Part shown: positions 1,034-63,503 of the stretch, one piece after another
How positions within the stretch are numbered: the first letter of the stretch is position 1
Layout of the letters: the number at the start of each line of letters is the position of its first letter
Origin: Gammaproteobacteria bacterium
GTDB lineage: Bacteria; Pseudomonadota; Gammaproteobacteria; GCA-002705445; GCA-002716945
Direction: 5' to 3'
Assembly: GCA_002698665.1 (NCBI GenBank)
Contig: NZZP01000036.1
Location: 5,125-69,124, forward strand
Length of the DNA: 64,000 nucleotides
Translations under genes and position numbers: made by a program
Notes under the pieces: model-generated
Told to the model about the DNA's origin: nothing
What the model saw: the letters and a program-made list of their open reading frames with translations, nothing else
Databases searched by the model: none

Positions 1034-1113
1034 TAGCGAAGGAGGGACTCGAACCCTCAACCCGAAGGAGCAGGTTTTGAATCTGCCGTGTATACCAATT
1101 CCACCACTTCGCC
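1034..1113 (-). tRNA. tRNA-Leu (anticodon CAA), class II with a short variable arm
   Basis: The reverse complement folds as a cloverleaf. Acceptor GGCGAAG/CTTCGCT with a G1-U72 wobble, D-arm GTG-GAATTGGTATA-CAC, anticodon loop TTCAAAA (anticodon CAA), T-arm GAGGG-TTCGAGT-CCCTC, discriminator A. It aligns closely with E. coli leuX. CCA is not encoded. Confidence 0.75.
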
Positions 1114-4374: not shown

Positions 4375-6173
4375 TGGCTGTATATTCTCGGTGGAAATAT
4401 CTTTTAGTTTTTTTGATTCTAGTATTATCAACTATCTATGCTCTCCCTAACTTTTATGCTTCAAAACCAGCAATTGAGATTAATTCAATTAACCAAAGTG
4501 AATTGAACAAAATTTTTAATGTAAACTCAAAAAAAAATAATTATAAAGTAATACAAAAAAATGATAAATCTATTATTACTTTTTCTTCAATAGAAGACCA
4601 ACTAGATGCTTATAAAAAACTAGCTTCTTCTAGTTACAATTTAGAAAATCAATACCAATATACATTAACTAGTTATATTAATCTCCCAGGCTGGCTTACT
4701 TATATTAACGCACATCCTATGTTTCTGGGTCTTGATTTGAAAGGAGGCGTGCATTTTCTTTTACAAGTAGACAAAGAAAATATTAAAACTAATTTACTCA
4801 GGGAAATTGAAACTGAGACAAAAAAACAACTTATTAGGGATAAGCATAGATTCCAATCACTATATAAAACAAAAAATGAAATTATAGTTGAATTTAGTAA
4901 AAATGTACCTCTAGATCAAATATCTGAATCAATAATTAATGAAAACCCTGATGTTGAAATTAATACTGATAAAAATGATACTAATGTTATATTACAGATT
5001 ATTCCATCGCAAACACTTATAGACAGAGATATAAAAAGCGCTTTAGCTAAAAACTTGACAATATTAAGGACAAGAGTTGATGAGCTTGGCGTTGCCCAAC
5101 CTATTGTACAAAAACAAGGTAAAGATAGGATAATAGTACAACTACCTGGCCTGCAAGACTCTACACGCGCAAAAAGTATTCTTGGTTCTACTGCTACTCT
5201 AGAATTTAGATTAACAAAAGGTAACCAGCAAGATTGGTATAACTCAGGTATTAATGGTATCCCTACTATAAATTCTTCGACTCTTTATCGCACAAGGGAT
5301 GGAGGGCCCATATTATTATCAAGAAAGGTTATAGTTGCAGGTGAGGATATCAAAGGGGCTAACTCTGGCTTTGATGGTCAAACAAATAGTCCTGCTGTAT
5401 TTGTAAACCTCAGTGACTATGGGGCTTCAATGATGTTAGAAACAACTAACAAAAATATAGGGAACAAAATGGCAGTTATTTTTGTTGAAAAAAACAAAAA
5501 AGAGGTAATTAATGTAGCTACGATAAGAGAAGCTTTTAGCAAGCGCTTTCAAATCACAGGTCTTGACATGACTGAAGCACAAGACTTAGCAATTTTATTG
5601 AGATCGGGAGCTCTTAGCGCTCCAATGGAAATTGTTGAGGAAAGAACAGTTGGTCCTAGCCTAGGAAAGTATAATATTCTAGCTGGTAAAAATTCCATGT
5701 ATTTTGGGTTATTTCTTGTTGGCATATTTATGATTATTTATTACAGACTGTTTGGTTTGGTAGCAAATATAGCTCTAGTGGCAAATATAATTATTATTAT
5801 AGCAGTGCTATCAATCTTTCAGGCCACACTTACACTATCCGGTATAGCAGGCATTGTTTTAACTGTAGGCATGGCAGTTGATGCCAATGTTTTAATATTT
5901 GAGCGTATTAGGGAAGAGATAAATAATGGTAGCAGTCCTAATGCAAGTATTTATTCTGGATATCAAAAAGCATTTTCTACTATTTCTGATGCTAACATAA
6001 CTACGCTAATAGCTGCCATATCATTACTGACAATAGGCACTGGAGCTGTAAAAGGGTTTGCCATTACACTTGTTATTGGTATTTTATCATCTATGTTTAC
6101 ATCAATTGTTGGCACTAGAGTACTAGTAAATTTAATATATGAAAGAAGAAGCACTAAAGGTTTATCAATATAA
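4374..6173 (+). CDS. secD: Protein translocase subunit SecD
   Basis: 599 aa multi-TM protein with the large periplasmic domain and SecD/SecF transmembrane core. yajC-secD-secF order. Confidence 0.9.
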   Translation: MAVYSRWKYLLVFLILVLSTIYALPNFYASKPAIEINSINQSELNKIFNVNSKKNNYKVIQKNDKSIITFSSIEDQLDAYKKLASSSYNLENQYQYTLTSYINLPGWLTYINAHPMFLGLDLKGGVHFLLQVDKENIKTNLLREIETETKKQLIRDKHRFQSLYKTKNEIIVEFSKNVPLDQISESIINENPDVEINTDKNDTNVILQIIPSQTLIDRDIKSALAKNLTILRTRVDELGVAQPIVQKQGKDRIIVQLPGLQDSTRAKSILGSTATLEFRLTKGNQQDWYNSGINGIPTINSSTLYRTRDGGPILLSRKVIVAGEDIKGANSGFDGQTNSPAVFVNLSDYGASMMLETTNKNIGNKMAVIFVEKNKKEVINVATIREAFSKRFQITGLDMTEAQDLAILLRSGALSAPMEIVEERTVGPSLGKYNILAGKNSMYFGLFLVGIFMIIYYRLFGLVANIALVANIIIIIAVLSIFQATLTLSGIAGIVLTVGMAVDANVLIFERIREEINNGSSPNASIYSGYQKAFSTISDANITTLIAAISLLTIGTGAVKGFAITLVIGILSSMFTSIVGTRVLVNLIYERRSTKGLSI

Positions 6174-7072
6174 TGTTTAAACTAATCAAAAATAATTTAA
6201 ATTTAAATTTTTTAGGTAAGAGAAATATAGCAATCACATTATCCTCATTTCTTATTATTATTAGTTTGTTTAGTTTCATATTCAAGGGTCTAAACTGGGG
6301 TATTGATTTTTCTAGTGGTTATATTGTTCAAATTCAGTTTGAACAGGATGTCAAGGTAAGTGAGATTAGAGACAACTTTATCAAGTCTGGAATTGATGAT
6401 GCTTTGATTCAATATTATGGATCTAGTAATGAAATACTTGTAAAGCTTAAGGAAAATAGTAATTTTGAACGAAATAACATCAATGAGTTTCTTAATAAAT
6501 CATTATCAAAGGATTATCAGTTTAAGATTATGAAACTTGAATTTGTAGGATCCCAAATTGGCAGCGAATTAAGAGAGAAGGGTGAATGGGCAATGTTAGT
6601 GGCATTACTTAGTATTCTTGTATATATTGGTTTTAGATTTGAATTTCTTTTTGGTATTGGAGCAATCTTTGCATTGATACACGATGTTATAATTACTCTA
6701 GGATTCTTTTCTTTACTACAAATAGAATTCAATCTAAGTGTGCTCTCAGCAATTCTTGCAGTAATTGGCTACTCTTTAAATGATACAATTGTTGTATATG
6801 ATCGTATAAGGGAAAATATAAGAACAATTAAAAGTGATTCATATATAGATATATTAAATAAGTCAATAAACCAAACTCTCTCTAGGACCATCATAACGTC
6901 TTTCACCACGCTTTTCGTATTATTTTCATTATTAATTCTAGGTGGATCAGCAGTTTATTATTTTGCATTAGCAATGATAATAGGTATTCTAGTTGGCACT
7001 TATTCTTCTATATATATAGCAGGAACCAGTTTATACTTGCTAGATGCTAAGTTAGAAGATGATTCTAACTAA
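6173..7072 (+). CDS. secF: Protein translocase subunit SecF
   Basis: 299 aa SecF-type TM core following secD. Confidence 0.9.
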   Translation: MFKLIKNNLNLNFLGKRNIAITLSSFLIIISLFSFIFKGLNWGIDFSSGYIVQIQFEQDVKVSEIRDNFIKSGIDDALIQYYGSSNEILVKLKENSNFERNNINEFLNKSLSKDYQFKIMKLEFVGSQIGSELREKGEWAMLVALLSILVYIGFRFEFLFGIGAIFALIHDVIITLGFFSLLQIEFNLSVLSAILAVIGYSLNDTIVVYDRIRENIRTIKSDSYIDILNKSINQTLSRTIITSFTTLFVLFSLLILGGSAVYYFALAMIIGILVGTYSSIYIAGTSLYLLDAKLEDDSN

Positions 7073-7844
7073 GTAACTTTAATATTTTTGAATGAAGCCA
7101 GCTCTTTGCAGCTATTATAGATGTAGAATTATATATATCATCATTACCCTCAATATCACTAATCAATATTCCAGATTCTTTGCATAAAAGTATCCCAGCT
7201 GCTGAATCCAAGATATTAATAGAAGGGTATATAATCAAATCTAAACTTCCGGATGATAAATATGCAAATTCTGTAGATGGAGAACCTATATTTCTAGATT
7301 CTCCATCTATATATGCTCTTAATTTATCTTCTATAGCACTAGATTTAATAGAATATAATAATCTTTTTTCGTGATTTTTAGTATGTCTAATTTTTTTATT
7401 CTCCTGCATTGCTCCGTTTCCTTTGATTGCTGTAGTCATCTCATCTTTAATAGGATTAAATATTACAGTAGCATAAGCACATCTCTTACGAAAAATTGTT
7501 ATTGATACATTAAATAGAGGCAATTTATTAATAAAATTCTCATAGCAGTCAATAGGATTTATAACCCAAATATACTTTTCCTCATAATCAAAAATATTGT
7601 TAACCTTACAGTTATTTTTATCTTTGATGTTATCTGGAATAAAATTTAGTGGTGAAGGCCCTAAAATATCTGTTTCTCCAAATGGATATGCATCCATGAT
7701 TACATTTACTATATGACTATAAAGATATTCATTTATCCCTTTAGATAGTATCAATTCATCTTGATTCTTTGTCAGGTATAGCTGTACTATTAGTTCAGAT
7801 ACTGACCTACATGCTTTAATTGCTATATTTAATCTTGGTTGCAT
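7065..7844 (-). CDS. suhB: Inositol monophosphatase family protein (SuhB)
   Basis: N-terminus MQPRLNIAIKACRSV matches SuhB (MHPMLNIAVRAARKAG). It is divergent from trmJ, as in E. coli suhB/trmJ-iscR. Confidence 0.8.
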   Translation of the reverse strand: MQPRLNIAIKACRSVSELIVQLYLTKNQDELILSKGINEYLYSHIVNVIMDAYPFGETDILGPSPLNFIPDNIKDKNNCKVNNIFDYEEKYIWVINPIDCYENFINKLPLFNVSITIFRKRCAYATVIFNPIKDEMTTAIKGNGAMQENKKIRHTKNHEKRLLYSIKSSAIEDKLRAYIDGESRNIGSPSTEFAYLSSGSLDLIIYPSINILDSAAGILLCKESGILISDIEGNDDIYNSTSIIAAKSWLHSKILKLLS

Positions 7845-7881
7845 ATTGTTTTATGTAGTAAATTAATCATAATATTACATT

Positions 7882-8595
7882 ATGTTTTCGAATATTAATA
7901 TTATTTTAGTAAATACTTCTCATTCTGGTAATATCGGGTCATCTGCTCGTGCCATGAAAACGATGGGTTTTGAAAACCTTATTTTAGTCAACCCTAAAGA
8001 TTTCCCATCATCACATGCTAATGCCCTCGCTGTTGGATGTAGAGATGTATTGGATAAAGCTAAAGTTTTTAATGAATTCAATGAAGCTATATCAATTGGT
8101 AATATCAACATAGGACTAACTGTCCGATCTAGGCGAGCATCAATACCTATATTAGAGATAGATGACTTCATTGATATGATATTACTAAATTCTGAAAATA
8201 AATTTAATATAATTTTTGGTAATGAAAAATCAGGATTATCAAATCAAGAACTACTTAAATGTGATTATGTTATGACTTTGCCAACTTCAAGTAAATACAA
8301 ATCATTAAATTTAGCATTTGCTGTTCAAATTGTTGTTTATGAACTATTTAAAAAATCAAAGTATAAATTATTTAAATCAAAAAAACTTCCTAATCTTGCA
8401 TCATCTAAAGAAAAAAATTTTTTCATTGAAACTCTTATATCTCTGTTAAAAACCACAAAATTTATAACGGAAAAAAACCATCAATCTTTAACCAAAAAAA
8501 TACATATTATCTTTAATAAAGCAAACTTGGAGACAGATGAGGTCAACACATTACATGGCATATTAAGCTCTCTTAGTAAATATTCAAAGAAATAG
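7882..8595 (+). CDS. trmJ: tRNA (cytidine/uridine-2'-O)-methyltransferase TrmJ (SpoU family)
   Basis: N-terminus IILVNTSHSGNIGSSARAMKTMGF closely matches E. coli TrmJ. It lies directly upstream of iscR. Confidence 0.8.
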   Translation: MFSNINIILVNTSHSGNIGSSARAMKTMGFENLILVNPKDFPSSHANALAVGCRDVLDKAKVFNEFNEAISIGNINIGLTVRSRRASIPILEIDDFIDMILLNSENKFNIIFGNEKSGLSNQELLKCDYVMTLPTSSKYKSLNLAFAVQIVVYELFKKSKYKLFKSKKLPNLASSKEKNFFIETLISLLKTTKFITEKNHQSLTKKIHIIFNKANLETDEVNTLHGILSSLSKYSKK

Positions 8596-8630: not shown

Positions 8631-9098
8631 ATGAAACTTACTACTAAAGGGCGATATGCAATAATAGCAATGGTTGATTTGACCATGAACAGTGAGCATG
8701 ACCCAGTGTCACTCAAGGATGTGTCTGCTAGACAAAACATATCCTTATCTTATTTAGAGCAACTATTTGCAAGATTGAGGGCCGCAGGACTTGTTAAAAG
8801 TTATAGAGGTCCAGGCGGAGGTTACAGTTTAAATAAAGAAGCGACTTCGATTAATTTGTTAGATGTAATTACAGCAGTTGATGAGAATATGGATCAAACA
8901 CAATGTAGTGGTGCCATGAACTGTATTGATGAAAAACCATGCTTAACGCATTACATATGGATTGGACTAAATAATACGATTAATCAATACATGAAAGGAA
9001 TCAATTTAAATGATGTTGCATTAAGAGAGGATGTTAAAAATATCATTTTTTTACGGGAGAAAGGAAATGTCAACAGTAATCAAAGACAAAAAAAATAA
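8631..9098 (+). CDS. iscR: Fe-S cluster assembly transcriptional regulator IscR (Rrf2 family)
   Basis: Rrf2 HTH ([12 protein letters not shown]) and three cluster-ligand cysteines ([13 protein letters not shown]). It is the first gene of the isc operon. Confidence 0.85.
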
Positions 9099-10314
9099 AA
9101 TTAGTATACCCATCTACTTGGATTATTCCTCGACTACACCAGTTGACGATAGAGTTGCAAAAAAGATGTCCGAGTGTCTAACAAGAGACGGAGCTTTTGG
9201 AAACCCAGCTTCAAGGTCTCATCCTTATGGATGGGATAGTGAAAAACTTATTGATGAATCAAGGCAACATGTAGCTAACTTGCTAGGAGCTGATAAAAGA
9301 GAGATTATATGGACTAGTGGTGCGACAGAGTCAGATAATCTAGCTATTAAAGGAGCTGCGTATTTCTATAAAGATAAGGGTAATCATCTAATAACTTTAT
9401 CTACTGAACATAAAGCGGTTTTAGACACAATGAGATTCCTTGAGTCTGAAGGCTTTGAGGTAACTTATTTGGACCCAAAGGATAATGGACTGCTCGATAT
9501 CAATGATCTTAAGAAAGCTATCAAGGACACTACTATACTAGTGTCAATTATGCATGTGAATAATGAAATCGGTGTAATACAAGATTTAGAGTCTATAGGT
9601 AAAATATGTAGAGATAATAAAATTATTTTTCATGTTGATGCAGCTCAGAGTCCTGGAAAAGTAGAAATAGATGTCAATAAATATAATATTGATTTGTGCG
9701 CGCTTTCTGCCCATAAAGCGTATGGACCCAAAGGAATAGGTGCGTTATATGTAAGAAGAAAACCAAGAGTGCGTATACAACCACAAATTCATGGAGGTGG
9801 ACATGAGCGCGGGTTCAGATCAGGAACTTTACCGACACATCAAATAGTAGGAATGGGTGAAGCATTCAGAATAGCAAAAGAAGAAATGAAAGAAGATAAT
9901 AAACGAATACGTAAATTAAGAGATATTCTATGGAATGGTATAAAAGATATTGAAGAAATTTATCTTAATGGTGATCTAGAGAATCGCATATCAGGAAATT
10001 TAAATGTTAGTTTTAATTTTGTTGAAGGGGAAAGTTTGATAATGGCTATAAAAGATATAGCTGTATCATCGGGATCTGCCTGCACATCAGCAAGTTTAGA
10101 GCCTAGTTATGTACTTAGAGCTTTGGGAAGAGAAGATGAATTAGCTCATAGCTCCATAAGATTAACGATAGGTAAATATACTACTGAAGATGAAGTTCAA
10201 CATGCAATCACCTTATTAAAAACATCAGTGGCTAAACTTAGAGATTTGTCGCCTTTATGGGACATGTATAAAGAAGGTATTGATTTAAAAACAGTTAAAT
10301 GGACAGCGCACTAA
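9067..10314 (+). CDS. iscS: Cysteine desulfurase IscS
   Basis: About 70% identical to E. coli IscS by eye ([46 protein letters not shown]). The start is taken at the ATG behind a GGAGAAAGGAA ribosome-binding site (9067). The track ORF from 9031 is a 5' over-extension. Confidence 0.9.
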
Positions 10315-10315
10315 C

Positions 10316-10639
10316 ATGACAATAACCATAACAAAAAAAGCAGCAAATCATGTGAATCAACATCTACAGAGCCGAGGAAAAGGAATTGGTCTTAGATTAG
10401 GGGTCAAAACCACAGGGTGTTCAGGCTTGGCGTATGTAATTGAGTTTGCAGATAAGATAGAAAAAGAAGACAAAGTGTTTAAAGATAACGGTATTACATT
10501 AATAATTAATCCTAAAAGTTATGTTTACCTTAAAGGAACAGAGTTAGATTTTGCTCGAGAGGGTTTAAACGAAGGTTTCAAATTCAATAATCCTAATGTA
10601 AAAGATAAATGTGGATGTGGCGAGAGCTTTAATGTTTAA
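10316..10639 (+). CDS. iscA: Iron-sulfur cluster insertion protein IscA (A-type carrier)
   Basis: Near-identical to E. coli IscA ([17 protein letters not shown]-terminal CGCGESF). It starts 2 nt after the iscS stop. Confidence 0.85.
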
Positions 10640-11154
10640 TGGACATATTAAATAAGAACTATTTTGAACTATTCAATATCAATGTTTCTATTGACCTTAA
10701 TAAATCAATTTTAGATGAAAAAGTTAAGAAACTACAATTAACGTTTCATCCTGATAAATTTACTAATTCTACAGCTCGCGAAAGAAAAATAGCATTAATG
10801 ATATCGTCGCATATAAATGATGGTTACAAGATATTATCTGATATCGTTCTTAGGGTTGAATATATATTAAAAATAAATAACTATGAAATAGATGATTCAA
10901 AAACAATAAATGATGAAAACTTTCTGCAGTTACAAATTAAATATAGTGAAATTATAGATTCACTCAATATCACTAAGAATCAAGATTTAATAAAGAGTAA
11001 TATTCAAGATTTAAAGATAGAAACTAGAGATATAGTATCTGAAATTAAAGAGTGCTATGAAAAATCTAATTTCCATGGAATGTGGTTGGCATTATCTAGA
11101 TTACGATTTTTTAAAAAAAATATAAAACAACTTGGAAGTTTATTGACAATATGA
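10639..11154 (+). CDS. hscB: Fe-S protein assembly co-chaperone HscB
   Basis: J-domain with HPD motif (FHPDKF) and a C-terminal helical domain. It lies upstream of hscA. Confidence 0.85.
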   Translation: MDILNKNYFELFNINVSIDLNKSILDEKVKKLQLTFHPDKFTNSTARERKIALMISSHINDGYKILSDIVLRVEYILKINNYEIDDSKTINDENFLQLQIKYSEIIDSLNITKNQDLIKSNIQDLKIETRDIVSEIKECYEKSNFHGMWLALSRLRFFKKNIKQLGSLLTI

Positions 11155-12986
11155 GTTTATTGAAAATATCTGATCCTCTGAATGATCATCAAAAAATACC
11201 TAAATTAGTGGTAGGTATTGATCTGGGTACTACTAATTCATTGGTTGCAACCTATGATACTAATTATAAAATCTATACTGATTCTGGTCATGATTTGATA
11301 CCATCTATTGTTGCTTTCTCACCTGAACATGACATATCAGTTGGTATAGGTGCAATAAAATTAGTAGATGATTCAGAAGTAAAGACAGTATCCTCAATCA
11401 AGCGGATAATGGGCTTATCATATGATCAAATTGACGAAGTATCATTACCTTTTGACTATCCTATTATAAAGCTCAATAATATGCCTTCTATATCAATACA
11501 TAAAAAAAACTATAGTCCTATAGATATATCATCTTTGATTTTAAAACATTTAAGAAATATTGTTGAAAAAACAGAAAATAGTACATTAGATGGTGCTGTT
11601 ATTACAGTGCCAGCATATTTTGATGACATCCAAAGACAAGCAACAAAAAATGCTGCAAAGTTAGCCGGTGTGAATACTTTGAGATTATTAAATGAGCCTA
11701 CAGCAGCAGCATTAGCATATGGGTTAGACTCACAAGATCAAGGATCATTTATTATTTATGATTTAGGTGGTGGTACTTTTGATGTTTCTGTTCTAACGCT
11801 TGATAATGGAGTATTTAAAGTTTTATCAACTAATGGAGATACAATGTTAGGCGGTGATGATATTGATATTATTCTATCTAATTGGCTCAAAAATAAATAT
11901 GAATTTCTTTCTGATGTACCTTTACTAACCTTAAGAGGTATTGCGAAAATAATGAAAGAGTCACTTAGTACAAATGACTCTATTGAGCACACATTCAACA
12001 ATCATATACTTAAGATTACAAGAAAAGAGCTTGATGAACTTATTATGCCTTTAATAACTAAAACTATAAAAATTGTAAAAGATGCAGTTAAGGCATCAGA
12101 GAAAAATATTAATGATATAAATAAAATTGTATTAGTAGGTGGTAGTACAAGACTATTATTAGTGAGAGAATTACTACATAACGAATTGAATTGTGAAGTT
12201 CTGAGTAATATAGACCCTGACAAAGTAGTAGCTTATGGTGCTGCTATACAAGCTTCTATCATAGCGGGGCAAAATCAAGATGATGTATTATTGCTTGATG
12301 TCCTACCATTATCGCTTGGTATCGAAACTTATGGAGGGTTGGTGGAAAAAATAATTACTCGTAATACACCAATACCTATAACATCTACAAAAACATTTAC
12401 TACATTTAAAGACGGACAGACAAAACTTCTGGTTCATATTCTCCAGGGAGAACGAGAATTAGTAAATGATTGTAAGTCATTAGGCCAATTCATTTTGTCT
12501 AGTATTCCACCTATGGTATCTGGTGCTGCAAGAATAGATGTTGAGTTTCAAATAGATGTGGATGGGCTTCTGTCTGTTACTGCCATAGAAAAAAATTCCG
12601 GCGTGATGTCATCAATAGATGTTAAACCATCTTATGGGCTTAGTGAAGTTGAAATAACAAAAATGATAGAGGAATCAAACTCTCATGCTAATAGTGATAT
12701 GGCTGCAAGAAAACTTAATGAATCAAAAGTTGAGGCTAAGCGTGTTATTTATGCTCTGGAACAAGCATTAATAAAAGATGGTAATGAATTATTATCAGAT
12801 AATGAGGTATCTACTATAAAGCAATCATTATCAGAATTAAAGTCATCACTAGATAAAAATGACCCAGATTTAATTAATCATAATATTAAACAAACAGAAC
12901 AAATATCTGAATTTTATGTTGATAGAAGAATGAATAGAAGTATCAACTCCTTCATTGCAGGAAAAGGTGTTGATGATATACTGTAA
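11151..12986 (+). CDS. hscA: Fe-S protein assembly chaperone HscA (Hsp70 family)
   Basis: 611 aa Hsp70 with actin-like ATPase motifs ([17 protein letters not shown]). hscB-hscA-fdx-iscX order. Confidence 0.9.
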
Positions 12987-12991
12987 ACGAA

Positions 12992-13336
12992 ATGCCTAAG
13001 ATTACTTTTTTACCTAATGATGATATATGTCCAGAAGGAGCTGTTATTGAGGTACCTAAGGGTACAAGTATATGTAAAGCTGCACTTGATAATGGTATTC
13101 CGTTAGAACACGCTTGTGAGCTATCATGTGCATGCACAACATGCCATGTATATGTTATAGAGGGTATCGATTCACTTGACGATGCAACTGATGATGAAGA
13201 TGATTATTTAGACAAAGCTTGGGGGCTTAAGTCAAATTCTAGATTAAGTTGCCAGGCGATTGTTCAGGATAAAGATTTAATAATTGAAATTCCAAAATAT
13301 ACAATTAATCATGCATCAGAAAGGCATTCATCATGA
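12992..13336 (+). CDS. fdx: [2Fe-2S] ferredoxin of the ISC system
   Basis: Adrenodoxin-type cysteine pattern (CxxxxxC...CTTC...C) with an acidic C-terminus. It matches E. coli Fdx. Confidence 0.85.
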   Translation: MPKITFLPNDDICPEGAVIEVPKGTSICKAALDNGIPLEHACELSCACTTCHVYVIEGIDSLDDATDDEDDYLDKAWGLKSNSRLSCQAIVQDKDLIIEIPKYTINHASERHSS

Positions 13337-13530
13337 AACTCACATGGCTTGATACATATGAGATAGCGTTAATGCTAGATGAAAAATATCCAGATATAGA
13401 CCCTAGAGTACTAAGATTTACTGATTTACATAAATGGATCACTAACCTAGAAGACTTTGATGATGATCCAGATAAATCGAATGAGAAAATTCTTGAAGAT
13501 ATTCAAATGAAGTGGATAGATGAAAAATAA
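13333..13530 (+). CDS. iscX: Fe-S assembly protein IscX (YfhJ)
   Basis: 65 aa protein with FTDLHKWITNLEDFDDDP, close to E. coli IscX (FTDMHQWICDLEDFDDDP). Confidence 0.8.
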   Translation: MKLTWLDTYEIALMLDEKYPDIDPRVLRFTDLHKWITNLEDFDDDPDKSNEKILEDIQMKWIDEK

Positions 13531-18696: not shown

Positions 18697-19539
18697 TTAC
18701 TCAAGCTTCAAGTGGAAATAATGACTAATTGTTCCATCTATAAATAATTTTGGGTTAATATATGCCTTATTCATTATTAAAGACCAATGAAGATGTGGGC
18801 CAGCAGAGGCGCCGGTATTTCCAACTTTACCTATAATTTGTCCCTTTTCAACAAATTCATTTTTATCTACAAGTACATCACTTAAGTGAATAAATAAGCT
18901 TTTTAAACCTCTACCATGATCCAAAAAGACAAATTTACCATTATAATAATAATCTCCAGTCAGAATAATTTTTCCAGACGAGGGCGCACTAATATATGTG
19001 CCTTCTGGAGCCGCTATATCTAGTCCATTATGATATCTTCCTTTTTTTCCATTATAATATCTTTCTGTGCCAAAAAAACCCGTATAAATACCATTCAATG
19101 GTTTGATAAAATCAATATCTGGATTCACATCAATCCAAACCTGTCTTGCTTTATTAAGAGTTTCTTTTTCATGTTTAATTCTCTTTAAATCTATGATAGA
19201 TGGCTGAATATATTTATTCTTAATCGTAATGTACTGTTTAGTAAAATCTTTTGGGGTCAGATTAATGTCAATAGACAAATACAAATCATCATGACTTAAA
19301 GTCAATGGATATATATCCGATTTATTATTATATGATATTCCATACATTAAAAAATACCTATCATTACGATTTATAGTAAGAATCTGGTTTTTTTTATATG
19401 CAATTTTATTATCATAGTCATTTTTAGAGATTTCATGTATGTAGACATCACCTCGAGATATAGGTATATCATTCGCAGATAAATTATTAGGCAGTATTGA
19501 TAGGATTGTTGTAGATAGAACTAATATAAAGTTTTGCAT
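18697..19539 (-). CDS. M23 family metallopeptidase (LytM/lysostaphin-like) with signal peptide
   Basis: HxxxD and HxH zinc motifs (HNGLDIA ... GPHLHWS) and an N-terminal signal sequence. Confidence 0.8.
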   Translation of the reverse strand: MQNFILVLSTTILSILPNNLSANDIPISRGDVYIHEISKNDYDNKIAYKKNQILTINRNDRYFLMYGISYNNKSDIYPLTLSHDDLYLSIDINLTPKDFTKQYITIKNKYIQPSIIDLKRIKHEKETLNKARQVWIDVNPDIDFIKPLNGIYTGFFGTERYYNGKKGRYHNGLDIAAPEGTYISAPSSGKIILTGDYYYNGKFVFLDHGRGLKSLFIHLSDVLVDKNEFVEKGQIIGKVGNTGASAGPHLHWSLIMNKAYINPKLFIDGTISHYFHLKLE

Positions 19540-19548
19540 ATAAATACA

Positions 19549-19932
19549 TCAATTTAGAATATGGCCAGTATCCTTCCACCCTTTTCTGGTATATTTGGTT
19601 GTAATTGTAGTAATAATACCACCCCTAACTTTCCAATATCCTATAACAGACATATATCGTGGTTTAATTAATTGAGTTAAATCACGTAGAATATTATTAG
19701 TATTATCTTCATGGAATGCGCCTACATCTCTATATGATGCCATGTATAGTTTGAGTGACTTAAGCTCTATACATAATTTATCTGGTACAATATTTATGGC
19801 AAATTCAGCAAAATCAGGCTGTCCAGTGAGTGGGCAGAGACATGTAAATTCCGGAATATCCATGGTAATGAGATAGTCTGTATTAGGGTGTGGATTTTTA
19901 AATGTATCTAGTAATATAGTTTTAGTTTTCAC
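19549..19932 (-). CDS. queF: NADPH-dependent 7-cyano-7-deazaguanine reductase QueF, unimodular (type I)
   Basis: QueF motif E(S/L)K(S/A)hK(L/Y)(Y/F/W) is present as ELKSLKLYM. The catalytic Cys is in CLCPLTGQPDFA. The 127 aa length indicates the single-domain type. Confidence 0.8.
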   Translation of the reverse strand: MKTKTILLDTFKNPHPNTDYLITMDIPEFTCLCPLTGQPDFAEFAINIVPDKLCIELKSLKLYMASYRDVGAFHEDNTNNILRDLTQLIKPRYMSVIGYWKVRGGIITTITTKYTRKGWKDTGHILN

Positions 19933-19995
19933 AATAAACCTCCTGATAGTAGTATTATACCTAAGATTTTATTATAATCTATTTAAGGGTTTTCT

Positions 19996-22830
19996 ATGCG
20001 TCTTACTAAAATCAAATTGGCAGGTTTTAAAACTTTTGTTGATCCAACGACTTTGTCATTTCCGAGCAATCTTACAGGTATAATAGGTCCAAATGGCTGT
20101 GGCAAATCAAATATTATCGATGCGATAAGATGGGTTATGGGCGAATCCTCAGCAAGAAACTTGAGGGGCGATTCAATGGAAGATGTGATATTTTCTGGGT
20201 CATCATCTCGATCTGAAGTTAGCAAGGCTTTTATCGAACTATATTTTGATAATGAAACTAATACATTAGATACAAAATTCGCAAGATATAGTGAAATTGT
20301 CATTAGAAGAGAAGTTTCAAGAGATGGAAGCTCTAATTACTACCTCAATAGTTCAAAATGTAGACGAAAAGATATTAGAGAGGTTTTTTTAGGTACAGGT
20401 TTGGGACCAAGAAGTTATGCGATAATTGAACAAGGTATGATATCGAGGCTAGTCGAATCTAAACCCGAAGATTTAAGAACATATCTCGAGGAAGCAGCTG
20501 GCATTAGCAAATATAAAGAAAAAAGAAGAGAAACTGAGTTACGTTTAAAACATACTAAAGAAAATTTAAATAGATTAAATGATGTAATGAAAGAAATTAC
20601 ATCTCAACTTAATAAACTTGAACGACAAGCAAAAGCAGCAAAAGATTACAAAGAATTAAAAAACTCCGAGAGAGATCTTAAGGTAGAATTATTAGCTATT
20701 AAATGGAACAATTATGATCAAGATATTGAAGACATAGATAAGAAAATAAGCAAAGATAATATTGAAAGTGAAAAACAAAAATCATTGCTAACAAATAAAG
20801 ATAAACTTATCGAAGAAACAAGAGTGAGTATAAATAACCAGCAAGATAAATTTAATTCGATGCAATCTGATTTTTATCAAGTAGGAAGTGAAATTGCGAA
20901 ATGTGAGAAGGATATTGAGCATTCTCAAGAATCTGAATCTTCAAGAAAGAAATCTATTGATGAGATTAATAGTAATATATTAAATATTAAAGAAAATACG
21001 ACAAAAGAAAAAAATAGATTAGATAATATTAAAAGAAATTTCTCAAATAATCAAGATGATCTCAAAGCTGTTAATAAAGAATTAGAAACCTTAGATAAAC
21101 AAAAAAAAGAATCAAATTTTGCACTTCAGAACTGGCAAAGCAGATATAACGAGTTTATATCACAACAACTAGAAACAAAAAATAAACAGGAAATAGAAAA
21201 AACAAAAATAACTGCATCAGAAAAGTCAATTGAGTTATTATCTAAAAGGCTTAAGATACTCGAGTCATACACAATCAAAGAAGATAGAAATTTGTCTGAC
21301 AAAGGTGATATTTTAGAGAATACTAAGACCCTTCAAGAGAAAATTTCTTCACTTTTGATAGATATCCAGCGCTCAGAATCGTACAAACAAAAAAAAGATA
21401 AGCTTCTTCAGTTATTGCCCAAAACAATTAGAGATATTACAGATAACATAAAATATATTTTGAAAAAAATAAAACTTTTGGTTAGATCACAAGAAGATGA
21501 AATAACTGATATCAAAGTTAAAATGGATGATTATAAACATAGCATCAAAACAGCCTATAATATTGTTGGTACTCTCCAAAAAGATATAGATTCGAATGAT
21601 CATAAACAAGTTATTTTAGAAAAAGAGAAGATTGAATTTAAGCAAATTATTGATCAAGTTAGCTGGAAAACTGATGAACTAAGGAGTCGGCAAAATGATA
21701 TAAATATAGTCATGTCTTCTTTAGCATCTGAAGAGACTGCTGTTTTAAAGAATATTGATAGACTCATTGAAGAAAAAAATCAATTAGAGGATAGAAAATT
21801 AACCTTATTATCGAGTGATAGCACTCCAAAAAAACCGTCGACTGATATGCAGAATCAGCTTAAAAAACTTCTTAATGATAAAAAAATTAAAGAAAAAAAA
21901 TTATCTATTTTACGTGAATCATTAGAGTCATTGGATGGAAAAATCAAATTATATGAAACAGATAAGTCTAGAATAAATACAGAGCTATCCTCACTCATCG
22001 ACAACATTCAAACTATGAAAATATCTTTGACACAAAAAACTGCCGAGAGAGATTCTTTAAAAATTAATTCAGAGCTCCCTGAAGAAGATATTAATGAAGC
22101 TATAGCAAATAATAGTAGCAATAAGAACATTGATACCTTAAATAAAGACATAGACAAAATACAAAATAAAGTCAATCACTTAGGAGCTATTAATTTGGCT
22201 GCTATTGATGAATTGAATGAACAAAAAGAAAGAAAATCATACTTAGACATGCAATATGAAGATCTGTCTAAGTCCGTATCTACTCTTGAAAGTGCTATTA
22301 AGAAAATTGATAATGAAACAAAATCAAAATTTAAAGAAATATTTGATAACATTAATAGTAATCTTAATTTATTTTTTACTAAAATATTTGGTGGAGGTAA
22401 AGCATATCTCGAATTAACTGATAATGATTTACTGAATACTGGCGTAATGATAAAGGCTAGACCTCCAGGTAAACTAGTAAAAAATATTAATTTATTATCT
22501 GGCGGTGAGAAAGCTGGTACAGGTATAGCTTTTGTGTTTTCAATCTTTACTATCAACCCTGCACCATTTTGTTTGCTTGATGAAGTTGATGCGCCTTTAG
22601 ATGAAGCTAATAATAATAGGTTCTGTCAAGTTGTGAAAGAGATGTCTGAAAATGTTCAGTTTATCTTCATTACTCATAATAAATCAACTATGGAACTTGC
22701 AGATATTCTTTCTGGTGTGACAATGAAAGAAGCTGGTGTTTCTAAATTAGTATCAGTTAACGTTAATGAGGCTGTTGATTTATCGATGAATAAAAATACA
22801 CTAGATGCAACACCTACTAGCCCAAACTAA
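19996..22830 (+). CDS. smc: Chromosome segregation protein SMC (short form, 944 aa)
   Basis: Canonical SMC head. N-terminal Walker A (GPNGCGKSNIIDAIRWVMGE), C-terminal signature LSGGEKA, Walker B (FCLLDEVDAPLDEAN), and a long K/E-rich coiled coil. smc-ligA order as in Pseudomonas. Confidence 0.85.
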   Translation: MRLTKIKLAGFKTFVDPTTLSFPSNLTGIIGPNGCGKSNIIDAIRWVMGESSARNLRGDSMEDVIFSGSSSRSEVSKAFIELYFDNETNTLDTKFARYSEIVIRREVSRDGSSNYYLNSSKCRRKDIREVFLGTGLGPRSYAIIEQGMISRLVESKPEDLRTYLEEAAGISKYKEKRRETELRLKHTKENLNRLNDVMKEITSQLNKLERQAKAAKDYKELKNSERDLKVELLAIKWNNYDQDIEDIDKKISKDNIESEKQKSLLTNKDKLIEETRVSINNQQDKFNSMQSDFYQVGSEIAKCEKDIEHSQESESSRKKSIDEINSNILNIKENTTKEKNRLDNIKRNFSNNQDDLKAVNKELETLDKQKKESNFALQNWQSRYNEFISQQLETKNKQEIEKTKITASEKSIELLSKRLKILESYTIKEDRNLSDKGDILENTKTLQEKISSLLIDIQRSESYKQKKDKLLQLLPKTIRDITDNIKYILKKIKLLVRSQEDEITDIKVKMDDYKHSIKTAYNIVGTLQKDIDSNDHKQVILEKEKIEFKQIIDQVSWKTDELRSRQNDINIVMSSLASEETAVLKNIDRLIEEKNQLEDRKLTLLSSDSTPKKPSTDMQNQLKKLLNDKKIKEKKLSILRESLESLDGKIKLYETDKSRINTELSSLIDNIQTMKISLTQKTAERDSLKINSELPEEDINEAIANNSSNKNIDTLNKDIDKIQNKVNHLGAINLAAIDELNEQKERKSYLDMQYEDLSKSVSTLESAIKKIDNETKSKFKEIFDNINSNLNLFFTKIFGGGKAYLELTDNDLLNTGVMIKARPPGKLVKNINLLSGGEKAGTGIAFVFSIFTINPAPFCLLDEVDAPLDEANNNRFCQVVKEMSENVQFIFITHNKSTMELADILSGVTMKEAGVSKLVSVNVNEAVDLSMNKNTLDATPTSPN

Positions 22831-42502: not shown

Positions 42503-42575
42503 TCCTCGGTAGCTCAGTTGGTAGAGCGAGTGACTGTTAATCACCAGGTCGGCGGTTCGAGTCCGTCCCGAGGAG
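42503..42575 (+). tRNA. tRNA-Asn (anticodon GUU)
   Basis: Cloverleaf: TCCTCGG-TA-GCTC-AGTTGGTA-GAGC-G-AGTGA-CTGTTAA-TCACC-AGGTC-GGCGG-TTCGAGT-CCGTC-CCGAGGA-G. Close to E. coli asnT. The anticodon stem has an A27-C43 mismatch. Confidence 0.85.
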
Positions 42576-48672: not shown

Positions 48673-48746
48673 AGGCGCGTAGCTCAGCTGGTTAGAGCGC
48701 CACCTTGACATGGTGGAGGTCGTTGGTTCGAGTCCAATCGTGCCTA
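48673..48746 (+). tRNA. tRNA-Val (anticodon GAC)
   Basis: AGGCGCG-TA-GCTC-AGCTGGTTA-GAGC-G-CCACC-TTGACAT-GGTGG-AGGTC-GTTGG-TTCGAGT-CCAAT-CGTGCCT-A. Near-identical core to E. coli valV/W. The acceptor stem has an A1-U72 pair. Confidence 0.85.
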
Positions 48747-51448: not shown

Positions 51449-51802
51449 ATGGCCCGTGTAAAACGTGGTGTAGTAGCACATGCTAGACACAAGAAAATAC
51501 TAAAATTAGCTAAAGGGTACAGAGGCGCTAGGAGTCGTGTATATAGAGTTGCTAAGCAGGCTGTAATTAAAGCTGGTCAGTATGCATACATTGGACGCAA
51601 ACAAAGAAAAAGGCAATTTAGATCATTATGGATTACAAAAATAAATGCCGCTGCTAGACAGAACAATATGTCATATAGTCAGTTGATGAACCAATTAAAA
51701 AAGGCTGATATAACTATTAACCGTAAAATGCTGGCCGACTTAGCAGTCAATAATGCAGCTAGTTTTACAGCAATAGTTAATTCTATAGCTGCACAAAAAT
51801 AA
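51449..51802 (+). CDS. rplT: 50S ribosomal protein L20
   Basis: [19 protein letters not shown] is canonical L20. Confidence 0.9.
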
Positions 51803-51813
51803 ATTTTACTGTT

Positions 51814-52794
51814 GTGTCGCAGCATTATAATTCATTAATATCCGAACTTAGAAAAACCGTTGATGACTGTGAGTCACAACATGATTTAATGAATGTTAAA
51901 TCTAAATACCTTGGCAAAAAAGGATTAATCACTATTGAGTTTGAAAGTCTCAGAGCTGCTCAAGATGATGAAAAAAAAGAGCTTGGAAGACTATTAAATG
52001 ACCTTAAAAATACCGCATTAGAAATAATAAATGAAAAACAAAACTCATTAATTAATAATCTTTCATTAGATAATAAAATAGATGTTACATTGCCTGGCAA
52101 AAATATATCTATTGGGTCAAGGCACCCTGTATCAATAGTAATAAATGAGATTACTGAAATATTATCTCATTATGGCTTTACACAGGAAACAGGATTAGAA
52201 ATTGAGGATGAATTTCATAATTTTGAAGCATTAAATATACCATCCACTCATCCAGCTAGAGATATGCATGATACATTCTATGTTGATAACAATAAATTAT
52301 TAAGAACTCACACGTCTTCAGTTCAAATAAGATCAATGAAAAACTCAAAACCACCTATAAAGATTATGACACCTGGCAAAGTTTACAGATGTGATTCTGA
52401 TCCTACTCATTCTCCGATGTTCCATCAAATAGAGGGTTTACATATTGATTCAAATATTAATTTCTGTCACCTAAAAGGTGTATTAAAAGATTTTATAGAT
52501 GAGTTTTTTGGAAGAAAGACTGAGATAAGATTTAGGCCATCTTATTTTCCTTTTACGGAACCATCAGCAGAACTTGATATTAAATTTAATGGTAGGTGGC
52601 TAGAAGTTTTAGGGTGTGGGATGGTTCACCCCAATGTTTTGCGTAATGTAGGGATTAACTCCAAAAATTACTCAGGCTATGCTTTTGGTTTAGGTATTGA
52701 AAGATTTGCAATGCTTAAGTTTGGCATAAAAGATTTAAGGATGTTTTATGAAAATGACTTATCATTTCTCGCTCAATTTGAAGGTCTAAAATAG
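51814..52794 (+). CDS. pheS: Phenylalanyl-tRNA synthetase alpha subunit (GTG start)
   Basis: Class II motifs (FRPSYFPFTEPS, GCGMVHPNV). The start codon at 51814 is GTG. Confidence 0.9.
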   Translation: MSQHYNSLISELRKTVDDCESQHDLMNVKSKYLGKKGLITIEFESLRAAQDDEKKELGRLLNDLKNTALEIINEKQNSLINNLSLDNKIDVTLPGKNISIGSRHPVSIVINEITEILSHYGFTQETGLEIEDEFHNFEALNIPSTHPARDMHDTFYVDNNKLLRTHTSSVQIRSMKNSKPPIKIMTPGKVYRCDSDPTHSPMFHQIEGLHIDSNINFCHLKGVLKDFIDEFFGRKTEIRFRPSYFPFTEPSAELDIKFNGRWLEVLGCGMVHPNVLRNVGINSKNYSGYAFGLGIERFAMLKFGIKDLRMFYENDLSFLAQFEGLK

Positions 52795-52796
52795 TC

Positions 52797-54812
52797 ATGA
52801 AAGTTAGTTATAATTGGATTAAAGAGTTTGTGCCAGGCATAAAGAAGAATAACATATCAGATCAACTTACATCACTTGGTTTAGAAGTTTCCTCTGCTAT
52901 TTATAAAAATAATGATTTAATTTTAGATATAGATTTAACTCCTAATAGAGCTGATTGTTTATCTGTAATTGGAATTTCTAAAGATTTAAGATCAATACAT
53001 AAAACAATGATAAAAGAGCCCTTATATAAAAAACTTCACGGTGTAAGCTCAAAAAAATCTATTTTGAAAGTTGATAAAAAGATATCATCGAATTATAACT
53101 TACTCACAATAAGTAATATTAATAACAAAATTAGTACACCAAAATTTATTATTAATCGTCTAAGTGCTTCACAAATAAAGCATGTTAATTTTATTGTTGA
53201 TATCTTAAATTATGTGATGCTTGAAAATGGACAGCCCATGCATGCGTTTGATAAAGATAAATTTAATGGTAAAGTTAATGTTAGATTCGCAAAAAAAAAT
53301 GAAAAAATTAATGCATTAGATTCTAACTTATATAATTTAGAAAATGATATGCCTGTTATTGCAGATGATTGTAATGTTCATGCAATAGCTGGGATTATTG
53401 GATCGACCTATTCATCTATAACAAAGTCTACTAAAAACTTAATGATTGAGTCTGCATTTTTTGATCCTAATATAGTAAGAAGGACTGCCAAAACTTTAAG
53501 AATTCAAACCGATGCATCGCATAGATTTGAAAGAGGTGTAGATCCTACTTTGGGTAAATACGCTATCATGCGAGTATTTTATCTTTTAGCAAAGTATTCT
53601 ACATATGACAATTATTGTTATGATGTTAGAACTGCAAATAATCTACCTGTACATATTCAAAAAAAAATTAAAATTGAGTTTAATCATATAAAAGATTTGC
53701 TTGGTGTGAATCTAGATAATAAATTTATAGTTAGAACATTAACACTATTAAATTTTAAGCCCAGTGTTACAAAAAATAGTATCACTGTTCGTGTTCCAAG
53801 TAATAGATTTGATATAAATATACCTGAAGACTTGATTGAAGAGATAGCTAGAGTCTATGGTTATGATAATATTACCTCTACCCCTGACATAACTCAAAAA
53901 AAGATATCCAATAATACCGCAAATCAATTAAATAATTATCTAAATATATTTGTCACGAGAGGGTACAACGAAGTTATATCGTTTAGCTTGCTACCAAGAA
54001 ATATACAAAAATTCTCCAGCAGTGATAAAAATATTATTTCTATTCAAAATCCTATATCTGAAGATAAATCTGAGTTAAGAACAAGTATGATTTACAGTAT
54101 GATTGATACATATAAATATAATGCTACTAGACAGCAGTTTAATATAAAGATTTTTGAATCTGGGAAAATATATAAATCTCAAAAGAAAAAAATAATTGAA
54201 ACTAATATAATCAGTGGCTTATTATCAGGATTAAATTCTGGTTTTAATCTTAAAGCTGATCAAAATCTTATTGACTTCTTTGATATGAAGGGTGATTTAA
54301 TGAGTATATTTCATAATATTACTTTTAAGCCCTCTAATTCTTTAGATTATCTAGAAAAAAGTAGTCAAGCTATGATATATCAGAATAAAAAACTTGTAGG
54401 GCATTGTGGAGAGGTAAAGAAATCCCTGTATAGTGATATTTCTCGCAAATACCCTTTATACTTTTTTGAGATTTTGCCAGATAATCTACATCACACAGTA
54501 GATGTAAAATATAATGAGATATCAATTTTTCCAAAGGTCAAGAGAGATTTAACTATTTTACTTGATGATAAAATTTCAGGACAAGATATAATAGATAAAG
54601 TAGAAAGAATGTCACTTAAACAACTGAAAAATATTAGAATAAGTGATATATTTTATAATGAGAAAGATTTTAGAACAAACGAAAAAAGCATGACCTTCGA
54701 GTTAATTTTTCAGGATAAGAAGTCTACTCTTACAGATAAAAAAGTAAATAATCTAATGATACTTATCACGCAAGAAGTACAAAAGCATCTAGAGGTTAAA
54801 ATTAGAAGTTAA
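52797..54812 (+). CDS. pheT: Phenylalanyl-tRNA synthetase beta subunit (short, 671 aa)
   Basis: B3/B4, B5 and FDX-ACB domain order, directly after pheS. The N-terminal tRNA-binding domain appears reduced. Confidence 0.85.
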
Positions 54813-54814
54813 TT

Positions 54815-55114
54815 ATGACTATTACTAAAAACTCACTTGTAGAAATCATACATAATGAGGTTGGCCTCAATAAGAGGGAAGCAAAAGAGTTTATTGAGGA
54901 ATTCTTTGAGATGATTAAATCAACATTGGAGGAAGGTAATGATATTAAATTCTCTGGGTTTGGTAATTTTATACTCAGAGATAAAGTTGCTAGGCCAGGA
55001 AGAAATCCTAAAACAGGAGAAGAGGTTGTTATATCAGAACGGCGTGTAGTCACATTTAAGTCAGGGCTGAAGCTTAAAAATAAATTAGAAGCTTATGATG
55101 GAAAATCAGAATAA
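54815..55114 (+). CDS. ihfA: Integration host factor alpha subunit
   Basis: HU/IHF fold with the IHF-alpha signature ([24 protein letters not shown]). Confidence 0.85.
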
Positions 55115-55454
55115 TAATATTTCGATTGATATACCTAATAAGAGGTATTTTACTATTGGTGAAGCCTCTAAAATCTGTAGAATAAAACCTCATGTGCTGA
55201 GATATTGGGAACAAGAATTTAAGGAATTAGAACCGATAAAGAGAAAAGGAAATAGGAGATACTATCAACAAAGAGACATTCTCTTGGTACTTCAAATTCG
55301 TGATCTTTTACAAAACCAGGGTTATACCATAGACGGTGCTAAAAACATGCTCAATAAGCCTCTTAACAAAACATCTACTTCAACAAATAACAAACAAGTT
55401 ATTTCACAAATCAAATCAGACCTTGAGAAGATTATTTCTATTTTAAAAAGATAA
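55095..55454 (+). CDS. MerR family transcriptional regulator (HTH only, no metal-binding domain)
   Basis: MerR-type HTH ([25 protein letters not shown]). Pseudomonas also carries a small MerR-like gene after ihfA. Confidence 0.65.
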
Positions 55455-55456
55455 TA

Positions 55457-56092
55457 ATGATTTCGGCATTTAAAGAAAAATACCGATACTCAAAATATCA
55501 TATTAATAAAGTTGATGGACTGAGATATTACTCTATTTCAGAGAATTTAAACGTTCCAAGTGTTACTAGTATATTGAAAAAGACAAGCTCTGATAAATGG
55601 TATGAGTCATTGCATGTTTCTGACTCAATTGAGATTGGTAATTATATGCATACTTATTTAAATCACTATATCTCAAAAAATAATGATTTTGTTATTGAAT
55701 CTAAGAATTATTCAATTGCAAAAAAGTTAGCTCAAATTGTTATTGATAATCTAATAGTAGAGCTTGATGAAGTATGGGGGTCTGAGGCCACAGTTCTTTA
55801 TAAAGAACAATATGCCGGCACTATTGATCTTATTGGGGTAATTGATGGTAAGGTTACATTAATTGATTACAAATCATCTTATAGGAGAAAAAATGAAAAT
55901 GAGATCAATGAATACTTTTTGCAGCTAGCGGCATATGCATTAGCTCATGACTGGCAATACCATACCAAAATTGAATCAATTATAGTATTCTTAGCTATAA
56001 GAAATGGTGATTTTGAAAAAATTATAATTAATGATGAATTATATAAATATAAAGAAAAATGGTTAAGTAGGCTCGAAGAGTTTTTAGGGTAG
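55457..56092 (+). CDS. PD-(D/E)XK nuclease superfamily protein, RecB/Cas4-like core without Fe-S cysteines
   Basis: Ordered motifs GTIDLIG (motif II Asp), LIDYKSS (motif III D/E-x-K) and QLAAYALA (QxxxY). The protein has no cysteines. Confidence 0.55.
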   Translation: MISAFKEKYRYSKYHINKVDGLRYYSISENLNVPSVTSILKKTSSDKWYESLHVSDSIEIGNYMHTYLNHYISKNNDFVIESKNYSIAKKLAQIVIDNLIVELDEVWGSEATVLYKEQYAGTIDLIGVIDGKVTLIDYKSSYRRKNENEINEYFLQLAAYALAHDWQYHTKIESIIVFLAIRNGDFEKIIINDELYKYKEKWLSRLEEFLG

Positions 56093-56102
56093 TATTATAA
56101 AA

Positions 56103-58685: not shown

Positions 58686-58905
58686 TACTCTTAAGTTTTT
58701 TAATAGCATCATCAAGATTTGAGAAAGTATATGGATCAACATTATTGTATTCATAAATATTAATATATTTATTTATAACAATATAGATTTCAGATTCATC
58801 TAAATAGACTCTTATTTCGTTACATATTGATTGATACTCATAACCAGACTCTTGTATACATAATTCTAACTCAGATAGTATATGATACTTATCTTTTAGC
58901 ATCAC
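58675..58905 (-). CDS. Small hypothetical protein (76 aa), uncertain
   Basis: ORF in the lysS/purB convergent junction. It overlaps both neighbours by 11-17 nt. It has acidic, non-repetitive composition. Not recognised. Confidence 0.3.
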   Translation of the reverse strand: MMLKDKYHILSELELCIQESGYEYQSICNEIRVYLDESEIYIVINKYINIYEYNNVDPYTFSNLDDAIKKLKSIIF

Positions 58906-60256: not shown

Positions 60257-60315
60257 ACCAACATTTATCTCAAAGATGTTATTATAGCATATAATAATTT
60301 AATATTAAAAATCAT

Positions 60316-61695: not shown

Positions 61696-61699
61696 CTAA

Positions 61700-63005: not shown

Positions 63006-63445
63006 TGTTGGCTGAAATAATAATTATCATATTGACATTATTAATTATATTTACCTATCTTCTTTACTTATTATTCAAAAAAGAGTCTTTCAAAAAAATG
63101 ATTATTTTATCATCTTCAATATTTATTTTTTTTGTAATTACATTCAATAGTATGATTAATATTCTTGGATATCCTGTGGTTTCTAAATTACCTGAGAGAT
63201 TTGATTTACTATTTGTAAAAGTAATAAATAAAAATATTATTATATTAGTAAAAGACATTAACATAGATAAATATCCTAGATTGCATATACTGGACCATAG
63301 TATTTCTCTAGAAGATGAGTTTAAAAAAGCTTCATATGATTTAAAAGATGGTAAAAAAGTCATTGGTATAATTGATGAAAATATTTCCGATAATCATTAT
63401 GGAATCATATTTAAACCAATTAAAAGAAATATTCCTGCTAAATAA
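63005..63445 (+). CDS. Second single-pass ExbD/TolR-like partner (Glu in place of Asp), uncharacterised C-terminal domain
   Basis: N-terminal MLAEIIIIILTLLIIF has Glu at the position of the conserved TM Asp. A second hydrophobic segment and a 90 aa soluble domain follow. Translationally coupled (ATG overlaps the upstream stop). Confidence 0.4.
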   Translation: MLAEIIIIILTLLIIFTYLLYLLFKKESFKKMIILSSSIFIFFVITFNSMINILGYPVVSKLPERFDLLFVKVINKNIIILVKDINIDKYPRLHILDHSISLEDEFKKASYDLKDGKKVIGIIDENISDNHYGIIFKPIKRNIPAK

Positions 63446-63503
63446 TATGAAAACTTCAACTTTTTTATGATAGAATATCCACAATTTTTTGAGAGATTAA
63501 AGC

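Follow-up and report, generated by a model that had tools for sequence, protein, structure and literature searches.

The iscU gene absent from a marine gammaproteobacterial isc operon very probably lies 61.5 kb downstream, behind an IscR-like paralogue

To examine how the assembly of iron-sulfur (Fe-S) clusters is encoded in a low-GC marine gammaproteobacterium, we analyzed a stretch of 64 kb (~30% GC), hereafter the window, which corresponds to positions 5,125 to 69,124 of contig NZZP01000036.1 in the Gammaproteobacteria bacterium assembly GCA_002698665.1. The window carries an operon for the iron-sulfur cluster (ISC) system at 8.6-13.5 kb, in the order iscR-iscS-iscA-hscB-hscA-fdx-iscX, flanked by secDF, suhB, and trmJ upstream and by ndk and then hisS downstream. 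What it does not carry is iscU, the gene for the scaffold protein, which in canonical operons sits between iscS and iscA. Here, we describe the operon and then focus on where the scaffold of this lineage is encoded.

All seven isc genes lie on the forward strand, and in the source record the isc proteins carry the accessions MAR78182-MAR78189. The iscR gene (8631-9098) matches Pfam Rrf2 at 130.6 bits and shows the ligand motif C-x5-C-x5-C-x2-H in alignment. Its best NCBIfam match is IscR (TIGR02010) at 183.2 bits, under the equivalog cutoff of 207.55. Taken together, motif and score agree with an AT-rich orthologue that has diverged while occupying the orthologous position. The iscS gene (9067-10314) encodes a cysteine desulfurase of 415 amino acids (aa) that scores ~730-735 bits (730.4) with the IscS equivalog TIGR02006, against a cutoff of 643.2; gene calls in every assembly give this 415-aa form, and a longer open reading frame (ORF) of 427 aa from 9031 is probably not used. 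The iscS-iscA junction, where iscU would be expected, spans 10312-10318 and consists of the stop codon TAA (10312-10314), one base (c), and an ATG at 10316. The following gene, iscA (10316-10639), encodes an A-type carrier of 107 aa (TIGR02011, 168.5 bits; cutoff 150.6). All of the columns that do not vary among other gammaproteobacterial IscAs are kept in it (39 of 39), it has no signature peculiar to the clade, and we take it to be a canonical, ordinary IscA and not a scaffold replacement.

Downstream, hscB (10639-11154) encodes a J-type co-chaperone of 171 aa in which the HPD motif is present. It passes one of four NCBIfam HscB models (TIGR00714, 80.2 bits; cutoff 46.75), with Pfam DnaJ and HSCB_C scores under the gathering cutoffs, and its sequence is strongly diverged. 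The Hsp70-type chaperone gene hscA (11151-12986, 611 aa) scores 715.6 bits with TIGR01991 (cutoff 708.55), while fdx (12992-13336), for the ISC [2Fe-2S] ferredoxin, and iscX (13333-13530) score above the cutoffs of their models (TIGR02007, 169.8 bits; TIGR03412, 104.4 bits). The ORFs and family models thus bear out the gene order without iscU that was given in an initial annotation of this DNA, as well as its assignment of the 107-aa product to IscA instead of IscU, and direct reading of the sequence confirms the single nucleotide that it placed between iscS and iscA. One small correction applies at the start of the operon, where iscS is not separated from iscR but begins 32 nucleotides (nt) inside its 3' end (9067-9098).

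The gap is not confined to the operon. When E. coli IscU, SufU, NfuA, SufB, and CyaY were used as tblastn queries, only cross-hits to IscA were obtained across the 64 kb, and an IscU profile hidden Markov model built from 59 gammaproteobacterial IscUs likewise found no IscU and only IscA cross-hits among all six-frame ORFs of the window. Nor is the arrangement peculiar to this contig. The exact window IscA and an identical iscS-iscA junction occur on 10 contigs that were assembled independently, from Tara Oceans and further marine assemblies, among them a separate assembly at NCBI (GCA_902530175.1). When species-representative genomes were scanned with the window IscS, four sister species (L011-L014) were recovered in which iscA directly follows iscS and hscBA, fdx, and iscX are intact; their IscS proteins are 80-86% identical to that of the window, but their HisS proteins only 49-58%. 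Because the same junction recurs in 10 assemblies and four sister species, an assembly deletion is excluded. At least 120 further IscS variants in the protein database share 85-89% identity, all of 415 aa and one of them on 90 contigs, which indicates that the group is both abundant and diverse. Judging by these sequences, the iscU-less arrangement is ancient and stable within an abundant low-GC marine gammaproteobacterial group.

A canonical iscU was found on contig k127_655058 of ERZ976293 (102,500 bp), which was reached through the exbB-like protein of the window and is the source of two of our loci: L001, an iscU-less operon with the exact window IscA, and L236, which contains iscU. This contig shares 99.8-100% nucleotide identity with the window over the first 20 kb, including the isc region, and 99.84% over the last 12.3 kb (window 51,700-64,000), and at either end the coordinates of the two records differ by the same 17,997. 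Past the window end, its gene order is acnA-hflD-mnmA-aceA-icd-infA-DUF1249-Rrf2-iscU. In L236, the DUF1249 gene (19086-19514) precedes a gene for a second Rrf2 protein of 149 aa (19638-20087, equivalent to ~71,337-71,786 of the window numbering and thus outside the window), and iscU itself, of 127 aa, lies at 20101-20484. The latter corresponds to 89,797-90,180 of the full record and to 71,800-72,183 in window-equivalent coordinates, again outside the window. The iscU gene starts 13 nt after the Rrf2 gene, 61.5 kb downstream of iscA and ~7.8 kb past the window end.

The product of this gene has the features of a bona fide IscU. It matches Pfam NifU_N and scores 229.5 bits with TIGR01999 (cutoff 192.4), with the NifU and SufU models under their cutoffs. 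It contains C37, C63, and C106 as well as LPPVK at residues 99-103, and it shares 83% identity with its E. coli counterpart. In L237, which comes from another assembly of this species, the Rrf2 and IscU proteins are identical to those of L236.

The same locus was approached from several other directions. The IscU motif KTYGCGSAIA was turned into a DNA pattern that allowed A/T third codon positions only, and a scan of metagenome contigs with this pattern gave 120 loci, which were classified by context. One class (L153, L160, L198, L199, and L134) is cellular, has ~33% GC, and carries iscU away from iscS, with an Rrf2 gene and a DUF1249-like gene ahead of it; its IscUs are of the gammaproteobacterial type, 79-86% identical to that of E. 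coli. L153 shares synteny with the window's far end through purB, fumC, the exbB-like, 201-aa, and 146-aa genes, and acnA, with 34-72% protein identity for complete genes. L160 and L198 are linked by 79-82% nucleotide identity in aceA, and L134 and L199 by gene order. On these grounds, all five appear to be related to the window lineage.

Synteny at the far window end also connects a sister species. The anchor genes fumC, exbB-like, 201-aa, and 146-aa (60316-63445, forward strand) are identical or near-identical in L235, L236, and L237, collinear with the sister-species loci L225-L232 at 75% nucleotide identity, and collinear with L153 at the protein level. They are followed on the same strand by the 5' part of acnA (63504-64000), which is cut by the window end; these last 497 bases encode the AcnA N-terminus, and their translation matches L153 AcnA. 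A homologue search with the L153 IscU revealed a very large family, including a member, P0391, on 283 contigs. The longest contig is 199,865 bp for both P0391 and the sister-species IscS P0169, and it is this equality that links the two. The P0391 locus (L225-L234) reads exbB-200aa-146aa-acnA-hflD-mnmA-aceA-icd-infA-142aa-Rrf2-IscU and is collinear with the window end at 75% nucleotide identity. A 9-kb contig found via the 146-aa protein (L235) shares 99.76% nucleotide identity with window positions 60,222-64,000 and continues through acnA, hflD, mnmA, and aceA. Other routes ended elsewhere. Walking out from the window ends with the 201-aa protein and a 330-aa protein gave matches only on contigs of up to 11 kb, none of which reached iscU; for the 201-aa protein, the short-contig matches are probably due to differing gene start calls. 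Candidates drawn from homologues of a neighboring lineage's IscU were rejected, as P0094, P0143, P0151, and P0149 sit in canonical operons and P0152 is on phage.

The proteins that would work with IscU also carry signs of a retained partner. In the crystal structure, the IscS segments that touch IscU are helix alpha8 (Glu309-Ala316), Glu347, and the C-terminal helix (Arg379-Lys391) (PMC2854127). The docking segments of the window IscS (alpha8 EGESLIMA, Glu347, and the C-terminal helix) are conserved, and every one of the iscU-less operons keeps these segments to the degree seen in canonical operons. In HscB, hot-spot positions for IscU binding are L92, 96, and F153 (PMC3040723), and by alignment the window HscB keeps HPD, L92, a hydrophobic I96, and F153. 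The HscA substrate-binding domain keeps 44 of the 49 columns that are invariant in iscU-containing lineages, a proportion equal to that of the ATPase domain (106 of 117) and to that found for the HscA of an AT-rich control with iscU (L055; 43/49 and 109/117). A rate test scaled to IscS showed no acceleration of HscA in the clade without iscU when compared with pairs that contain it. Within the species, the ratio of nonsynonymous to synonymous polymorphism (pN/pS) is 0.16 for hscA and 0.23 for hscB, with 0.13 for hisS, and these low values point to purifying selection on both chaperone genes. The conserved contact determinants of IscS, HscB, and HscA, along with purifying selection on hscBA, lend indirect support to the persistence of a normal IscU.

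Altogether, we conclude with high confidence that iscU has been relocated and not lost, and that this lineage possesses a complete, conventional ISC system whose genes are split over two sites of the same chromosome region. Only the gene order differs from a conventional ISC system; this is a variation in organization, and possibly in regulation, and not new Fe-S machinery. The initial annotation had offered either a relocated iscU or a substitute scaffold, such as an A-type carrier, and the LPPVK-containing iscU 61.5 kb downstream of iscA on the same contig, the kind of gene by which that annotation would have told relocation from loss, upholds the former and speaks against the latter. Its remark that the chaperones are kept with no adjacent scaffold is literally correct, but the implied oddity of chaperones without a client disappears, as IscU is on the same contig. 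Two observations weigh against relocation as we read it. The distal iscU was seen on same-species contigs that are 99.8% identical to the window, and the window's own contig, from a metagenome-assembled genome (MAG) and 94,880 bp long, was read only to base 64,000. In addition, HscB of the window clade has R99 replaced by S or N (S in the window) and M93 by Q, E, or L; alanine substitutions at these positions had a modest effect at R99 and a minor one or none at M93 (PMC3040723).

The distal iscU might instead stand outside the housekeeping pathway; it could have come from phage or by horizontal transfer and have another function, in which case the operon would lack a scaffold of its own. Phage in the same waters commonly carry iscU as an auxiliary gene, and the distal gene does have its own regulator. 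However, it lies amid core genes (acnA, mnmA, aceA, icd, infA, and purL) in a synteny that is conserved in the same species, in a sister species, and in more distant contigs, and no other IscU was detected for the group. Its product is an IscU of the usual gammaproteobacterial kind, 83% identical to the IscUs of E. coli and L055 and 86% identical to the phage copy, and shows no special phage affinity; we regard this reading as very unlikely. A true loss of iscU, with IscA, NfuA, or a SUF scaffold building clusters and serving as the client of HscBA, would agree with the absence of IscU from the 64-kb window, the retention of hscBA under purifying selection, and the unusually strong conservation of IscA within the clade. 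Yet IscA carries no clade-specific change, no real gene of the window contains an LPPVK-like motif, and IscS, HscB, and HscA retain the surfaces by which they contact IscU; with a canonical LPPVK-bearing IscU on the same contig, we give loss hardly any credence. An assembly or binning artefact, for example a collapsed junction, was raised in the initial annotation and has nothing in its favor beyond the general possibility in MAGs, and we dismiss it almost entirely, since 10 assemblies, made independently from different samples and with different assemblers, share the identical junction, the equivalent junction turned up when the sister genomes were checked as that annotation had proposed, and at least 120 distinct IscS variants in the group each have 415 aa.

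With iscU relocated, the system would operate from two sites: the iscR-iscS-iscA-hscB-hscA-fdx-iscX operon of the window and, ~7 kb past the window end, an Rrf2-iscU unit preceded by DUF1249. Given the conserved parts and established ISC biochemistry, IscS would load sulfur onto IscU, Fdx would supply electrons for cluster assembly, and HscB and HscA would recognize IscU through LPPVK, freeing the cluster for transfer to IscA and client proteins. The conserved partner surfaces likewise suggest that the relocated IscU acts as a scaffold and binds IscS, HscB, and HscA. The split could have arisen by excision and transposition of iscU, or by duplication of iscR-iscS-iscU followed by reciprocal loss.

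Operons without iscU are found outside the window group as well. In other, higher-GC Gammaproteobacteria (L021, L044, L054, L065, L070, and L088), there is no iscU between iscS and iscA while hscBA-fdx-iscX are kept. The same genes are kept in L049, where the slot (7216-7938) is occupied by the gene for an RRM RNA-binding protein (7482-7754). On a neighbor-joining tree of IscS, IscA, HscA, and Fdx, the window clade, L054/L070/L088, and L049 form three separate clades; this is a simple distance tree of the sufficiently complete loci, in which attraction by AT bias is possible. In all, iscU is missing from the operon slot in at least three other gammaproteobacterial lineages. No extra gene is common to the flanks of all iscU-less operons, which have a DUF1249, cysE, NifS-like, or RRM gene depending on the lineage. 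Our literature search found no paper describing iscU-less isc operons or Rrf2-iscU pairing.

Several of these layouts have features of their own. In the L054 clade (L054:4780-5313; L065, L070, and L088), iscR-iscS-iscA likewise come after a DUF1249 gene, so that DUF1249-iscR adjacency recurs. In a Thiohalobacter MAG, the iscU-less operon includes an extra class-V aminotransferase of 382 aa, a NifS-like desulfurase, between iscR and iscS (L044:4830-5978). An AT-rich marine lineage (32-36% GC) has the order iscR-iscS-iscU-iscA-fdx-iscX-ndk, in which fdx follows iscA without an intervening hscB or hscA (L106, L127, L130, L136, L141, L162, L164, L175, L194, L195, L206, L212, L217, and L221; e.g., L141:2688-6091). 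The IscU of this lineage is divergent, with 134 aa and LPPIK (LPAIK in some) in place of LPPVK. This hscBA-less layout is the mirror image of the window arrangement.

The Rrf2 protein encoded beside the relocated iscU is itself related to IscR. Its best NCBIfam match is IscR at 128.8 bits, under the equivalog cutoff of 207.55, and it passes the Rrf2 superfamily model (100.8 bits; cutoff 73.3). Its identity is 43% with the IscR of E. coli and 36% with that of the window. By these comparisons, the paralogue is clearly IscR-derived. It does not contain the [2Fe-2S] loop with Cys92, Cys98, Cys104, and His107; a deletion of nine residues removes it, and no Cys or His is aligned there. Such a cluster-less Rrf2 gene also stands directly upstream of iscU at L153:1182-1646, L198:3526-3978, and L199:1879-2310. 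Loss of the ligand loop suggests that control of the scaffold gene may be independent of a cluster. At L119:300-1313 and L121:8213-9158 (37-41% GC), next to rho, trxA, and rhlB-like genes, a stand-alone iscU likewise directly follows an Rrf2 gene of the cluster-less kind. This context is unrelated to that of the window lineage, so the Rrf2-iscU pairing is not unique to it.

It is possible, though we consider it rather doubtful, that the split is regulatory rewiring and not neutral. Transcription of iscU in this very abundant group would then take place behind its own dedicated IscR paralogue, one that has become unable to bind a cluster. The supply of IscU would be uncoupled from the feedback that holo-IscR exerts on iscS, iscA, hscBA, and fdx, and the L119 and L121 pairs, together with the iscU-less operons of the other lineages, would represent convergent adoption of this design. 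Promoter and terminator scans were uninformative in DNA of 30% GC, as the counts were not above those of shuffled controls. Beyond the protein-coding genes, the only Rfam matches at the gathering threshold in the window are three tRNA genes, at 1034-1113 (reverse strand), 42503-42575 (forward), and 48673-48746 (forward).

The location of iscU removes the tempting lead of an ISC machine that has chaperones and no scaffold, and it shows that the absence of a gene from an "invariant" operon slot within a 64-kb window cannot be read as loss. This matters for annotation pipelines and for pathway-completeness calls on marine MAGs, as iscU stands ~61 kb from iscS in a low-GC gammaproteobacterial group that ranks among the most abundant. 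What remains is of modest interest, namely a split isc operon with the scaffold gene behind a cluster-less IscR-like paralogue. This paralogue and the recurring iscU-less operons may bear on the regulation of scaffold dosage in iron-poor surface oceans.

The contiguous order iscR-iscS-iscU-iscA is typical of Gammaproteobacteria and does not define the pathway. Compared with the canonical iscRSUA-hscBA-fdx-iscX operon of E. coli, Pseudomonas, and Azotobacter, the window lineage has all eight components, of which six pass NCBIfam equivalog-type cutoffs, HscB passes one model, and IscR is under its cutoff. It shares suhB-trmJ upstream and ndk-hisS downstream with the canonical operon loci L055 and L094, and the IscU-binding determinants of IscS, HscB, and HscA are conserved as in the canonical system. 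Whereas iscU stands between iscS and iscA in the canonical operon, in the window lineage it is 61.5 kb distant and follows a second, IscR-like Rrf2 gene without the cluster loop. Dispersed ISC genes also occur in other Proteobacteria, such as Rickettsiales, where iscS-iscU are separate from hscBA-fdx and still form one pathway. In dispersal of that type, iscS and iscU usually stay together, whereas in the window lineage iscU is apart from iscS and paired with a regulator paralogue.

Stand-alone iscU genes are also found in phage, where iscU is an already known auxiliary gene covered by PHROG family phrog_8429 ("NifU-like Fe-S cluster assembly protein"). We observed full-length, LPPVK-containing iscU on T4-like marine phage contigs (L091-L093, iscU at 6001-6408; L149, L155, L177, L188, and L124). 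On some of these contigs, genes for an A-type carrier, ribosomal protein S21, and DUF1674 are present as well, and others have iscU between regA/clamp-loader and DNA polymerase genes. The phage genes resemble the iscU of the window lineage in standing alone, in having LPPVK, and in their identity of 86%. They differ in context, as the phage copies lie amid T4-like replication and baseplate genes, while the iscU of the window lineage lies among core cellular genes in conserved synteny.

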